DNA of 16,376 bases from IMG/VR virus record IMGVR_UViG_2850784384_000009, positions 1-16,376 of that record; one strand, given 5' to 3'. Below the pieces are notes generated by a model that ran no database searches, was not told where the DNA came from, and saw only the letters and a list, made by a program, of their open reading frames with translations. The stretch is from a virus. Taxonomy: Duplodnaviria > Heunggongvirae > Uroviricota > Caudoviricetes. This document shows positions 6,351 through 8,824 of the stretch, piece after piece. How positions within the stretch are numbered: the first letter of the stretch is position 1; every line of letters begins with the position of its first letter. Made by a program: the position numbers and the translations under genes.

Positions 6351-6428
6351 TTTCTTTCCTCTGTTATGCCATCACCCGCGCTCACCTGGACAGTATGCAG
6401 CGGAGACTGAAGAGCCGCAATGAAGTGG

Positions 6429-7268
6429 TCAACAAAAACTGGCCACCGAGTTAGAGTTTTTCCAGTATCGATTTTCCGATTCGTTTGGGGGTAACCCACC
6501 GTTATATTCGTGCGGTCTTAGTGCACTGTAATATCCAACGATATAGTCCGTTATGGCGTGAGCTGCCTCGCTGAAGCTTACGTAACCCACCACCGGCATC
6601 CATTCGTTCTTCAGACTCCTGAAGAAGCGTTCCATTGGGCTGTTATCCCAGCAGTTTCCGCGCCGGCTCATACTCTGTCTGATCTGGTATCGCCACAATA
6701 ACTGCCGGAACTGCCTGCTCGTATAATGACTGCCCTGATCGCTGTGGAACATCACCCCGCCGGGCTTACCACGGGTTTCCCATGCCATTTCCAGCGCTTT
6801 CATGGTGAGCCTGCTGTCCGGCGAGAACGACATGGCCCAGCCCACTGGTTTTCTTGCGAACAGGTCGAGAACAACGGCGAGGTACGCCCAGCGCTTACCC
6901 GTCCAGATATAGGTCACATCACCGCACCACACCTGATTTGGCTCGGTCACGGCGAACTGCCTTTCAAGGTAGTTAGGGATAGCAACATGTTCATGACCAC
7001 CACGTTTATACCGGTGAGTCGGCTGCTGACAGCTGACCAGCCCCAGCTCTTTCATGAGCCTGCCAGCAAGCCAGCGTCCCATCTGGTAGCCTCTCCGGGT
7101 TGCCATTGTGGCGATGCTTCTTGCTCCGGCCGAACCGTGGCTGATGCCATGTAGCTCAAGTACCTGACTGCGTAATACAGCCCGTCTGCCGTCTGGTTTT
7201 TCAGGACGGTTTTTCCAGTATCTGTAGCTGCTGCGATGAACCCCGAACACATGGCAGAGTGTGACCAC
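6429..7268 (-). CDS. IS911 OrfB transposase (DDE catalytic domain; expressed as OrfAB by -1 frameshift)
   Basis: 279-aa [44 protein letters not shown].... The A AAA AAG slippery motif lies on the minus strand at about 7340..7346. Confidence 0.9.
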
Positions 7269-7294
7269 AGGATAATGCGCTCTGAGTTTCCCGA

Positions 7295-7597
7295 TTATCG
7301 AGAACTGTTCAGGGAGTCTGACATCAAGAGCGCGGTAGCCTTTTTTAATATTTCATTCTCCATTTCAATGCGTTGTAGCTTTTTCCTGAGCTCACGGATT
7401 TCAATTTGTTCCGGGGTAATGGGGGAGGCTTTTGGTGTTTTGCCCTGACGCTCATCACGCAGTTGTTTGACCCATCTTGTCATTGTGGAAAGGCCAACAT
7501 CCATAGCTTTGGCGGCATCTGCCACCGTGTATTTCTGGTCAACAACCAGTTGAGCGGATTCGCGTTTAAACTCTGCGCTAAAATTTCTTTTTTTCAT
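7295..7597 (-). CDS. IS911 OrfA
   Basis: [53 protein letters not shown].... The track ORF carries a 12-codon N-terminal extension; the canonical start is the internal Met at 7597. Confidence 0.9.
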
Positions 7598-7669
7598 TGG
7601 AGCACCTGTGTTGTTCTGAGGTGAGCATATCACCTCTGTTCAGGTGGCCAAATTCAGTGTGCCACTTCA

Positions 7670-8824
7670 TGGATGCCTGTTGAGCAGGAAGCGCCAACCC
7701 AGACTGGCTGGGATTTAACTGGCAACGCAACCGGGATTCTGGAACTCTCCGTGAAGTGCAACATGGGCGATCCGGATAACGATTTCTTCGAGCTTCGTGC
7801 AGATGACCTGCGTGATGAGCGTTCTTACCGTCGCCGCATCCAGGCATCCGCCAAAAAACTGGCGAATAACATTGAGTCAGCGATTGCCAAACAGGCAACT
7901 GAAATGGGCTCGCTTGTTGTTCACGATACCCGCGCAATTGGTCCATCGACTGGCCTGCCTGGCTGGGATTTTGTGTCTGATGCAGAGCGACTGATGTTCT
8001 CCCGTGAGCTAAACCGCGACATGGGCATCAGTTACTTCCTGAACCCTGACGATTACCGCAAAGCAGGCCGCAACCTGGTAGATGGTGACATCTTCGGGCG
8101 CGTTCCTGAAGAAGCATATCGAAACGGTACTATTCAGCGTCAGATTGCTGGCTTTGATGAAATTCTTCGCTCACCGAAACTTCCGGCAGTTACCAAGTCA
8201 ACCGCGACTGGTGTAACTGTTTCTGGTGCGCAGAAGTTTAAGCCGCAGGCATACACCCTTGATACCGATGGTAACAAAGAGAACGTCGACAACCGTGTTG
8301 CAACGGTGACCGTATCCTCCACCACCGGATTTAAGCGCGGCGACAAAATCAGCTTCATTGGTGTGAAGTTCCTGTCTCAGATGGCGAAGAATGTGCTGAC
8401 TGATGACGCGACTTTCTCAATCACCCGTGTGATCGATGGTACTCACATCGAAATCACGCCGAAGCCGATTGCGCTGGATGACGCGTCACTGACAAAAGAA
8501 GAGAAGGCTTACGCTAACGTAAACACCTCTCTTGCTGATACCACTCCGGTAAACGTTCTGAACGTGGCAACAACCACCGCTAACGTGTTCTGGGCTGATG
8601 ACTCAATCCGCCTGCTGTCTCAGCCGATCCCGGTAACCCATGAACTGTTTGCTGGCATGAAAACGTCTTCCTTCAGCATTCCAGGTATTGGTGTTAACGG
8701 CATCTTCGCAACGCAGGGTGATATCAACACTCTGTCTGGTAAGTGCCGTATTGCTGTGTGGTATTCAGCATGTGCTGTACGACCAGAGGCAATTGGTGTT
8801 GGTCTGCCTAACCAGACCGCGTGA
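7670..8824 (+). pseudogene. P22-type major capsid (coat) protein gene, 5'-truncated at the IS911 boundary
   Basis: Reading frame from 7670 gives [18 protein letters not shown]... ending GVGLPNQTA, which aligns with P22 gp5 from about residue 46 to its C-terminus as recalled. No native start or ribosome-binding site; IS911 directly abuts. Confidence 0.85.

Follow-up and report, generated by a model that had tools for sequence, protein, structure and literature searches.

Probable origin of the Shigella flexneri oacB element from a circle of P22-like phage DNA closed by IS911

How did a complete copy of IS911 come to separate the remains of xis from the remains of a P22-type coat gene, with different sequences on its two sides? 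The stretch of DNA analysed here (16,376 nucleotides in full, hereafter the window; Table 1) is 100% identical to S. flexneri CP034060.1, in which the element lies between adrA and psiF. The initial annotation ascribed the arrangement to a large deletion at IS911. The window is the S. flexneri oacB element, left over from a temperate P22-like phage that carried oacB and thrW-type int/xis/attP, and IS911 is a secondary joint within it. Comparison with related genomes leads us to consider it fairly probable that the DNA was excised as an IS911-closed circle, re-entered through IS629, and was trimmed by nested deletions.

Table 1. Features of the window, in order of position (strand cells are empty where none is assigned).
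Feature	Position	Strand	Basis or remarks
IS600 without its first ~82 bp	1-862	+	rve/HTH_21 domains; continues left of the window, where it is abutted by IS629
Tailspike C-terminal fragment, P22-like	863-1569	+	207-aa ORF at 946-1569
oacB, O-antigen O-acyltransferase B, intact	1623-2795	-	390 aa; Acyl_transf_3, E=2.8e-32
attP, uncut, thrW-type (P22/SfI-like) module	2867-3143		46-bp core at 3084-3129
int, C-terminal part	3144-3592	-	Phage_integrase domain; 98% identical to SfIV/SfI int
IS600 inside int	3593-5632	-	CTT/CTT duplication; self-BLAST, junction sequences, IS3-family transposase domains
IS1 inside the IS600 of int	3761-4528		9-bp duplication; IS1 transposase domain, self-BLAST, junction sequences
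int, N-terminal part	5633-6350	-	Pfam match; 99.6% identical to SfIV int
xis remnant	6227-6420	-	Codons 54-116 and part of codon 53; overlaps int start
CAA left flank of IS911	6418-6420		Partner copy of the triplet at the IRL end of the L013 IS911
IS911, complete	6421-7669	-	1249 bp; transposase genes on minus strand
Coat gene, codon 48 to stop	7670-8824	+	P22_CoatProtein, profile positions 50-422, E=1.7e-145
gp4, gp10, gp26 (tail needle), gp14, gp7, gp20, P22-like	9071-14193	+	All open; Pfam families
gp16-like gene, cut	14194-15911	+	Severed after ~573 of 911 codons; APC_JM3.2/Sf101 match stops at 15911
IS600, first 84 bp	15912-15995	+	Self-BLAST; the piece absent from the copy at 1-862
IS629, right-hand flanking copy	15996-16376	+	Runs past the window; 99.8% identical to the left IS629

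Copies of IS911, a member of the IS3 family, are ~1250 bp long, have imperfect terminal inverted repeats beginning TGAAGTGG, and express an rve (DDE) transposase through a -1 frameshift between orfA and orfB. The copy in the window has this length and ends in TGAAGTGGTCAACAAAAACTGG... and TGAAGTGGCACACTGAATTTGG..., with the IRR on the left (TGAAGTGGTCAAC...) and the IRL on the right (...GTGTGCCACTTCA). Its alignment with an annotated E. coli IS911 needs no gaps (98.96% identity, 13 mismatches), and its coding capacity is intact: the A AAA AAG slip site is in register, orfA encodes 100 aa, the 389-aa OrfAB frame is open, and the gene calls carry the rve and HTH_Tnp_1 families. The flanking triplets differ, CAA (6418-6420) on the left and TGG (7670-7672) on the right, and the copy is therefore without a target duplication, as opposed to the control copy from E. 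coli with its matching TGC/TGC; the IS600 in int and the IS1 of the element, which served as further controls, likewise have their duplications (CTT/CTT and 9 bp). The complete ends and unlike flanks reported in the initial annotation are thus confirmed, as is its view that this is not a simple insertion, since xis and coat are both cut as well. The absent 3-bp duplication leaves the identity of the element untouched and marks the copy as a rearrangement joint. Such flanks are real yet commonplace: of 10 further Shigella IS911 copies that were sampled, 8 have no such duplication either, and published work traces lost target duplications to IS-IS recombination or adjacent deletion (PMC11708052).

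On the left of the joint lies xis itself rather than, as had been proposed, the region just upstream of int: positions 6351-6420 belong to xis, which overlaps the int start. The junction cuts the gene at codon 53 (Ile) and leaves the 63 C-terminal codons of 116, whose translation equals residues 54-116 of SfI Xis (xis is annotated in both SfIV and SfI). The adjoining int is itself disrupted, by IS600 with IS1 inside it, a break on which the initial annotation was silent; in CP026871.1 the gene carries IS600 without IS1, and in 2457T it is intact.

On the right of the joint, the first coat codon after IS911 is TGG, which encodes Trp48 when mapped to phage APC_JM3.2 (position 15747) and to the intact relative L040 (position 4270). 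The gene had been read as starting at about codon 46 with neither a start codon nor a ribosome-binding site; the truncation holds, and reading of the sequence reveals no evident Shine-Dalgarno sequence, but the first codon is 48 and an in-frame ATG (Met49, position 7673) follows directly. In some deposited annotations a 383-aa protein starts at Met49, and this "coat protein" is a 5'-truncated pseudogene.

Beyond the P22-type coat gene, gp4-gp10-gp26-gp14-gp7-gp20-gp16 follow in P22 order. The arm matches PF11651 (E=1.7e-145) and PF11650, with PF11134, PF16532, PF11039, PF25688, PF16928 and PF26808 on the gene calls, and is 96.9% identical to APC_JM3.2 across 87% of its length; the genes from gp4 to gp20 are 96-98% identical to those of APC_JM3.2, Dewey and Sf101. 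It ends inside gp16 (...AGAGAGT/TGAGGTAGCC). No early, lysis, terminase, portal or scaffold genes are present within the window, and only 11.8 kb of a phage genome of ~39-40 kb remains. Relative to a P22-like genome, ~25 kb is lacking across the IS911 joint, namely the 5' part of xis, the early, immunity, replication, lysis, terminase, portal and scaffold genes, and 47 codons of coat. The claim that everything between int and coat is absent thus stands for the early to scaffold genes, though not for xis, in view of its retained codons.

The organization of the int side bears on how the element reached its present site. The attP core aligns with the "attP core" feature of SfI, and its P arm matches E. 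coli prophages and the attP of HK446; at attP there is no complete tRNA, and a full thrW is likewise missing. A prophage made by Int should have hybrid attL and attR sites, with int at one end and the conversion gene at the other; here, attP is intact between oacB and int. This oacB-int adjacency is the phage order, unlike the prophage order, and Int therefore did not integrate the DNA of the element. In E. coli G3/10, by comparison, the tailspike-acyltransferase segment lies at an attR end. Tandem double lysogeny was also considered as the origin of the internal attP.

The phage DNA is instead circularly permuted and bounded by IS629 copies in the psiF-adrA spacer. The flanks of these copies are reciprocal, ATC/IS629/ACG on the left and ACG/IS629/ATC on the right, as expected where two IS copies have recombined and exchanged flanks. 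Of 5426 E. coli genomes, 5422 have the reconstructed empty site, with its one ATC, as a continuous sequence. An IS629-mediated inversion was rejected as the source of the reciprocal flanks, as it would join the tailspike-IS600 side to psiF, not to adrA. The IS600 at the left edge is 99% identical to that in int and ends ...CAGTACACCTCA at 862. From there the tailspike fragment is 98.6% identical to that of L040, with 91% identity to Sf101 (15761-16408).

The order from which this arrangement may derive is seen in part in CP026871.1. On its late side, orfX, a P22-like late gene located between the lysis and terminase genes, is followed by IS911, a truncated portal gene, scaffold, a full coat gene (431 aa) and the genes up to the severed gp16, all upstream of the tailspike fragment, oacB, attP, int, xis and the early genes. 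The two IS600 pieces that lie apart in the window form here one IS600 with IS629 inside it (ACG duplication), which bridges gp16 to the tailspike. Its IS911 is the same allele as that of the window, with portal codon ~60 as one flank and orfX as the other, and its xis has no insertion at CAA and reads on into the early genes. This strain is a cousin of the window type rather than its ancestor: a different, inverted IS911 with an ATC duplication lies in its xis, at a distance of 111 bp.

A second relative, the S. flexneri contig L013, carries IS911 between orfX and the CAA-flanked 5' half of xis. Native xis has a single CAA at this site (GCCGCAATGCAGG); the window reads ...GCCGCAA/IS911 and L013 reads IS911/CAATGCAGG.... 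Both contexts are shared with CP026871.1 (left, 99.9% over 1596 bp; right, 99.9%), so that removal of the window's segment from CP026871.1 would yield L013. The IS911 of the window has no mismatches to those of L013, L038, L032, L043 and L044; position 105 differs in 6 of 7 other equal-length Shigella copies, and the window, L013 and L038 copies are identical there. The initial annotation had counted the discovery of the missing genes beside an IS911 junction elsewhere as evidence against its deletion, and L013 provides this for the xis 5' half with its CAA, although that contig has no more than 765 bp of what is missing (the xis 5' half and ~1.5 early genes).

Other searches for partner junctions were largely negative. 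Exact-pattern scans of viral contigs found neither junction of the window nor the hypothetical junction of the coat 5' part, TGG and IS911, and the latter was also absent from metagenome contigs; the CAA partner is located in L013, whereas scans of viral and metagenome contigs found none for TGG. The species-representative genomes lack the xis 5' partner junction, but they lack the window's own junction (the positive control) as well; evidently no genome in that collection carries the element, and its negative result has no weight. Complete E. coli genomes show no xis-IS911-coat arrangement. A look-up of the 279-aa OrfB returned 10 IS911 copies in other Shigella genomes, none of them (0 of 10) with a complementary flank, and look-ups with the chimeric xis 5' proteins matched only contigs of 0.8-1.0 kb.

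Given the order in CP026871.1 and the partner junction in L013, the element in the window therefore looks like an excised, IS911-closed and IS629-reintegrated segment. We envisage an ancestor resembling CP026871.1, which would have read, from the left, IS2, inverted orfX, IS911, truncated portal, scaffold, coat and onward to the severed gp16, followed by IS600 with its internal IS629, the tailspike fragment, oacB, attP, int, xis, early genes and a further IS629. Intramolecular transposition, or else recombination with a second IS911 inserted at the CAA site in xis, may have linked the ancestral IS911 to that site. This would have left orfX, IS911 and the CAA-xis 5' half on the chromosome and released a circle of IS911, the late-gene arm, IS600 with IS629, the tailspike fragment, oacB, attP, int and the xis 3' half. 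Re-entry by way of an IS629 already resident in the psiF-adrA spacer would produce both the permuted order and the reciprocal IS629 flanks. The partner of the constant IS911 flank survives in L013, and therefore at least one step was reciprocal or replicative, not plain loss. Judging from the sequences compared here, the joint probably closed an excised circle rather than arising as a simple deletion in place. The junction of adrA with IS629 and IS600 is common to the window and to 2457T-type genomes, in which int is intact; therefore, either the IS629 pair recombined twice or lineages exchanged DNA.

The coat end of the joint appears to be younger. The left flank of IS911 (xis 3' part and CAA) is constant in the window, L009 and L032, whereas the right flank lies at coat codon 48 (7670) in the window, L009 and L043, at coat codon 144 (7958) in L044 and at gp26 codon 134 (11389) in L032. 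An IS that is retained with one constant and one nested flank is the pattern of adjacent deletion, and the progression from portal codon 60 in the fuller strain through coat codons 48 and 144 to gp26, each in a different strain, looks like a series of nested IS911-adjacent deletions. They would have run rightward from the IRL end after re-entry, stopping at coat codon 48 here and farther on in other strains. L013 has an extra TGA at its orfX junction and L043 an extra CCA at its coat junction, neither of which is predicted by the circle model; read as footprints of an IS911 circle junction, these triplets gave no consistent result.

Among the alternatives, the one that survives best is that of the initial annotation, in which a colinear integrated prophage lost the DNA from xis to coat codon 48 in one IS911 step (adjacent deletion, or recombination of two IS911 copies in direct orientation) that discarded this DNA. 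We consider this unlikely. An intact IS911 with unlike flanks, the ~25 kb that is missing, and an orientation of the xis and coat remnants that suits a simple deletion on a circular P22-like map are all compatible with it, but the uncut attP and the oacB abutting int are not in prophage order, the order of the element is a circular permutation of that in CP026871.1 (with the coat arm upstream of the tailspike and xis leading into the early genes), and the xis 5' half with its matching CAA survives beside an identical IS911 elsewhere. Of the processes named in that annotation, adjacent deletion and IS911-IS911 recombination, both probably took part; what finds no support is their reduction to a single deletion in a colinear prophage.

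Alternatively, IS911-IS911 recombination could have fused two unrelated prophages, the int-xis part coming from a gtr phage of the SfIV/SfII type and the coat arm from a P22-like phage, so that no single phage genome was deleted at the joint. The int-xis region is indeed 98-99.6% identical to SfIV, SfV, SfII and SfI, none of them P22-like, remnants of gtr prophages adjoin the element in several strains, and unlike flanks are common in Shigella IS911 copies. Still, such a fusion is improbable, as the int-side arm also includes part of a P22-like tailspike gene along with oacB, which adjoins the P arm of that very attP, CP026871.1 links the two arms through gp16, IS600 with IS629, and the tailspike in P22 gene order, and IS911 connects the xis 5' half, too, with a late gene of P22-like type; moreover, P22-like phages with this type of int (80% identical) are known. 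The chance that a collapsed IS911 repeat misjoined two contigs is negligible: IS911 is multicopy and short-read assemblies break there, but the same junctions lie within contigs of several independent assemblies (the complete CP034060.1, AFGV01000021.1 and AMJW01000038.1) and the 5'-truncated coat protein is recorded in 161 blocks of the collection.

The element itself is already known, and the joint is a case of ordinary IS-driven prophage decay. According to two papers that cite the original description (Wang et al., 2014, J Bacteriol 196:1525, in PMC4206707 and PMC4159516), S. flexneri oacB lies in a "transposon-like structure" upstream of adrA. The window has the same 390-aa OacB, the same neighbour adrA and the same flanking by IS elements, and in L008 the order adrA, IS629, IS600, tailspike fragment and oacB likewise places the gene beside adrA and within IS bounds. 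The exact OacB protein occurs in 2935 blocks of the collection, and in the complete genomes inspected adrA is near or, in one strain, a P22-like arm.

Similar to the serotype-converting lederbergviruses Sf101 and Sf6, the element keeps the order of coat to gp16, tailspike, acyltransferase, attP and int; Sf6 likewise harbours an IS911 (PMC5630979), and the oacB of the window equals the "O-acyltransferase B" of Sf101 in length and position. DNA identity to Sf101 is 88-98% over gp10-gp16 and 91% over the tailspike-oacB segment. Unlike these phages, the element has none of the early, lysis or packaging genes, and it cannot function as a phage. The Sf101 paper proposes that the adrA-linked oacB derives from an Sf101 prophage at sbcB. 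In contrast, int and attP of the window are thrW-type, Sf101 has another integrase and another att site (sbcB), and the tailspike-oacB segment is only 91% identical to that of Sf101. Our data suggest as an alternative source a P22-like phage with a thrW-type integration module, partly kept in strains like CP026871.1. As in described cases of IS-adjacent deletion (PMC11708052), an intact IS without a duplication edges the missing DNA; the window departs from them in that the constant flank has its partner junction elsewhere, in L013.

The resistance regions of bacteria offer a second parallel. There, IS26 forms translocatable units, circles bounded by an IS that insert again beside a copy of the IS already in place. 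The segment in the window resembles these units in being permuted relative to its source and placed between two direct IS copies with exchanged flanks. It differs in that the IS is IS629, of the IS3 family, that homologous recombination explains the exchange as well as a transposase would, and that the circle is one we infer. We regard the chances as even that the oacB cassette is an IS-built translocatable unit, which left a decaying P22-like prophage by the thrW/gtr island as an IS911-closed circle and re-entered through IS629 at psiF-adrA.

The import of these findings beyond Shigella genomics is limited. For the genus they illustrate clearly how a serotype-converting prophage is taken apart and relocated by IS911, IS600, IS629 and IS1, with the host-beneficial oacB spared, whose product adds O-factor 9 to the O antigen. 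Because it lies between two direct IS629 copies, the oacB cassette could be excised and relocated once more with no need of phage functions, and if it is such a unit, this would be a phage-independent route for the relocation of O-antigen acetylation.

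IS911 in the oacB element of Shigella flexneri marks a loss of P22-like DNA, as the initial annotation had proposed; about 25 kb is missing, and 11.8 kb of about 39-40 kb of phage DNA is left. Of the missing DNA, 2.4-2.5 kb belongs to a different joint, at IS600. The window is 100% identical to S. flexneri CP034060.1 (3,896,393-3,912,768), and the element adjoins adrA. Its oacB product (390 aa, Acyl_transf_3) matches the 'O-acyltransferase B' of phage Sf101 in length and position. Coordinates in L008, the locus that holds the whole element with its chromosomal neighbours, are converted to window coordinates by subtracting 2328.

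Features of the oacB element and of related loci
Feature	Position	Details
IS911 at the joint	window 6421-7669	complete, 1249 bp; orfA/orfAB open; transposase genes on minus strand; IRR end left, IRL end right
IS600 in int, carrying IS1	window 3593-5632; IS1 3761-4528	IS600, CTT duplication; IS1, 9-bp duplication
attP	window 2867-3143; core 3084-3129	46-bp core aligns with SfI attP core
IS629 flanks	L008 699-704, 2006-2011, 18321-18326, 19627-19632	right-hand IS629 start = window 15993-15998
Split IS600 flanks	window 15909-15914; 860-865	AGT (gp16 side); ACT (tailspike side)
Gap at IS600 joint in references	Sf101 13249-15760; L040 12665-15086
Tail-needle breakpoint	window, about 11744-11760	265 vs 282 aa
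gp7 breakpoint	window 12766-12777	202 vs 230 aa
Second IS911 in CP026871.1 xis	L031 5795-7042	opposite orientation, ATC duplication
Second integrase C-terminus	L013 6225-6643; L031 2167-2460	divergent, ~100 codons
Extra CCA	AMJW01000038.1 (L043 = L010) 1249-1257	between IS911 IRL end and coat TGG (CCATGG)
Extra TGA	L013 1591-1599	between orfX flank and IRR end, relative to CP026871.1
L008 order		adrA, IS629, IS600 without first ~82 bp, 'tailspike, oacB, attP; int broken by IS600::IS1, xis', IS911; 'coat, gp4, gp10, gp26, gp14, gp7, gp20, gp16', first 84 bp of IS600, IS629, psiF-phoA
CP026871.1 order (L031, L038)		start: IS2, inverted orfX, CAA|IS911|CCC, 'portal (from about codon 60); late arm: scaffold, full 431-aa coat, on to gp16', IS600 with nested IS629 (ACG/ACG); int side: 'tailspike, oacB, attP, int::IS600, xis, early genes; end: IS629, IS600, integrase fragment of second prophage, att, gtrA
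L013 order		IS2, inverted orfX, IS911|CAA, xis 5' half, 1.5 early genes, IS629, IS600, integrase fragment, att, gtrA-gtrB-gtrI

The initial description of a complete IS911 with unlike 3-bp flanks was borne out: both ends are present, and CAA on the left faces TGG on the right. A gap-free alignment gives 13 mismatches to a copy in E. coli that bears the annotation 'IS3-like element IS911 family transposase, programmed frameshift' and has a proper 3-bp duplication (TGC/TGC); orfA (100 aa) and OrfAB (389 aa) are open in the window copy, with the A AAA AAG slip site intact. Simple insertions near the joint carry their duplications, CTT/CTT for IS600 in int and 9 bp for IS1 within it. Eight of ten sampled Shigella IS911 copies (S. 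flexneri and S. dysenteriae, L014-L023) lack a duplication and two have one of 3 bp. In one of the sampled loci (L021) the flanks are ATG and GAA although an alpha-2-macroglobulin-type gene is split by the element. Missing IS duplications are usually caused by adjacent deletions or by recombination between IS copies (PMC11708052).

Both genes at the joint are cut. To the left, 99.6% identity with phage SfIV extends up to 6420, and this side translates as Xis residues 54-116, with the break within codon 53; xis overlaps the int start in the annotation of SfIV and SfI. The flank, first taken to lie upstream of int with xis absent, is thus part of xis, which is truncated but present. To the right, P22-like similarity begins at TGG, Trp48 of the coat protein by alignment to phage APC_JM3.2 (15747, CDS from 15606) and to the intact relative L040 (4270, CDS from 4129), so that the 5' truncation stands and only its proposed position, about codon 46, shifts. 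The coat remnant was also thought to lack a start and a ribosome-binding site; an in-frame ATG (Met49) is present at 7673 and serves as the start of a 383-aa protein in some deposited annotations, while inspection of the IS911 end preceding it revealed no Shine-Dalgarno sequence.

Exact OacB and gp10 protein look-ups returned several S. flexneri genomes carrying the element in other states. In the fuller relative CP026871.1 the coat arm precedes the tailspike, in agreement with the P22 map. That the two sides of IS911 come from unrelated prophages is unlikely, as P22-like virion genes are found on both arms and the arms are linked in P22 order in this genome. Its xis is not interrupted at the CAA site; a second, independent IS911 is inserted 111 bp from it. 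Next to the CAA site stands TGCAGG, a sequence with a faint resemblance to the IS911 end TGAAGTGG. Targeting of IR-like sequences by IS911 may be a reason for the repeated insertions in xis.

A search for the IS911 IRL end followed by CAA and the native xis continuation identified L013, an IMG/VR provirus from a gtrI strain. Its left (over 1596 bp) and right contexts are each 99.9% identical to those of CP026871.1, and L013 therefore corresponds to CP026871.1 minus the block that forms the window element. Both have orfX beside IS911, a late gene that P22-like phages (HF4s, prophage L027) carry between lysis and terminase genes. Many draft assemblies of S. flexneri contain the xis 5'/early piece (765 bp) as a contig of 0.84-0.97 kb. 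Since a contig as long as CP034060.1 (4,586,233 bp) encodes exactly this orfX protein, and a single gp10 locus is shown for CP034060.1, orfX is probably in an L013-type context there as well. Beside the att core and gtrA, L013 and CP026871.1 carry the C-terminus of a second, divergent integrase, an arrangement expected if a gtr phage integrated into attL of an older thrW prophage.

The attP site, of thrW type with a phage-type P arm left of the core, is uncut between oacB and int, and ARAGORN detected no tRNA there. In contrast to the true lysogen E. coli G3/10, which has its tailspike-acyltransferase part at attR and distant from int, oacB is beside attP-int in the window; E. coli CUPF06 similarly has a tail gene, the same attP arm and int in phage order within the chromosome. 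The IS629 copies bounding the element have reciprocal flanks (ATC|IS629|ACG and ACG|IS629|ATC), and the IS600 pieces beside them are complementary halves of one IS600. These features are a misfit with a normally integrated prophage; they point to a circular DNA with IS600::IS629 that would have joined an IS629 in the chromosome, through homologous recombination or cointegrate formation. In 5422 of 5426 E. coli genomes the empty psiF-adrA spacer site, with a single ATC, is uninterrupted; together with the exchanged flanks this suggests that the whole 18.9-kb element entered as a circle through IS629. The initial interpretation is supported in part: the net loss at IS911 stands, but one deletion in a colinear prophage does not fit the uncut attP, the circular permutation of the element or the survival elsewhere of the 5' half of xis and the CAA that matches it. 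Several independent assemblies share the junctions, which excludes an assembly artefact.

The split IS600 also has unlike flanks, and its joint replaces the stretch from the gp16 C-terminus to the tailspike N-terminus, including an arc/mnt-like gene; it is a second IS-associated deletion within the same remnant. The tail-needle gene and gp7 of the window are 17 and 28 codons shorter, respectively, than in CP026871.1 and L040. At the two breakpoints the BLAST segments share 17 and 12 bases, an overlap suggestive of in-frame deletion between short direct repeats, and the shortened genes are common to all window-type contigs.

At IS911 the left flank is constant (xis3'-CAA) while the right flank varies among strains: it falls at coat codon 48 (window, L009, L043) or 144 (L044), or at gp26 codon 134 (L032). 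The identical IS911 allele in CP026871.1 abuts portal codon ~60, and draft contigs L045 and L046 reach further, to terL. IS911 has the same sequence in the window, L013, L038, L032, L043 and L044, and position 105 differs in six of seven other Shigella copies of equal length. Such a nested series with one fixed flank is the classic picture of IS-adjacent deletions. Of the partner junctions of this IS911, the one with CAA and the xis 5' half is present in L013; the partner joining the coat 5' part and TGG to IS911 was not found among viral and metagenome contigs, and none is expected under adjacent deletion. The extra triplets at IS911 ends in L043 (CCA) and L013 (TGA) are not predicted by the history proposed here.

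That history starts from an IS911 between inverted orfX and the late arm that would have been linked to the xis CAA site. The link would have come from intramolecular transposition, in which both the IS and the target triplet are duplicated, or from recombination with another IS911 that already occupied CAA. It would have yielded the L013-type chromosome and a circle (IS911 - late arm - IS600::IS629 - 'tailspike - oacB - attP - int - xis 3' half). Re-integration of the circle at the IS629 of the psiF-adrA spacer would account for the permuted order and for the exchange of ATC and ACG between the IS629 flanks, and IS911-adjacent deletions would then generate the differing right flanks. Adjacent deletion and IS911 recombination, both named in the initial annotation, probably acted at different steps.

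CP026871.1 is a cousin, not an ancestor; its int carries IS600 without IS1, and that of 2457T is intact, so that the IS600 and IS1 insertions order events relative to one another among strains. In 2457T-type loci (L036, L028-L030, L033-L035, L037) the oacB module has adrA as its direct neighbour on one side and the gtrII/oacD island on the other; int is intact, IS600 interrupts xis some 50 bp past the CAA site and the P22-like late arm is absent. Because these genomes share the adrA-IS629-IS600 junction with the window and have an intact int, either the same IS629 pair recombined twice or the lineages exchanged DNA.

Nothing here falls outside known classes, which are IS911, P22-like remnants, the oacB element already published and the decay of Shigella prophages driven by IS elements. 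The reconstructed excision, relocation and trimming of the oacB element complement these neatly and are not surprising.
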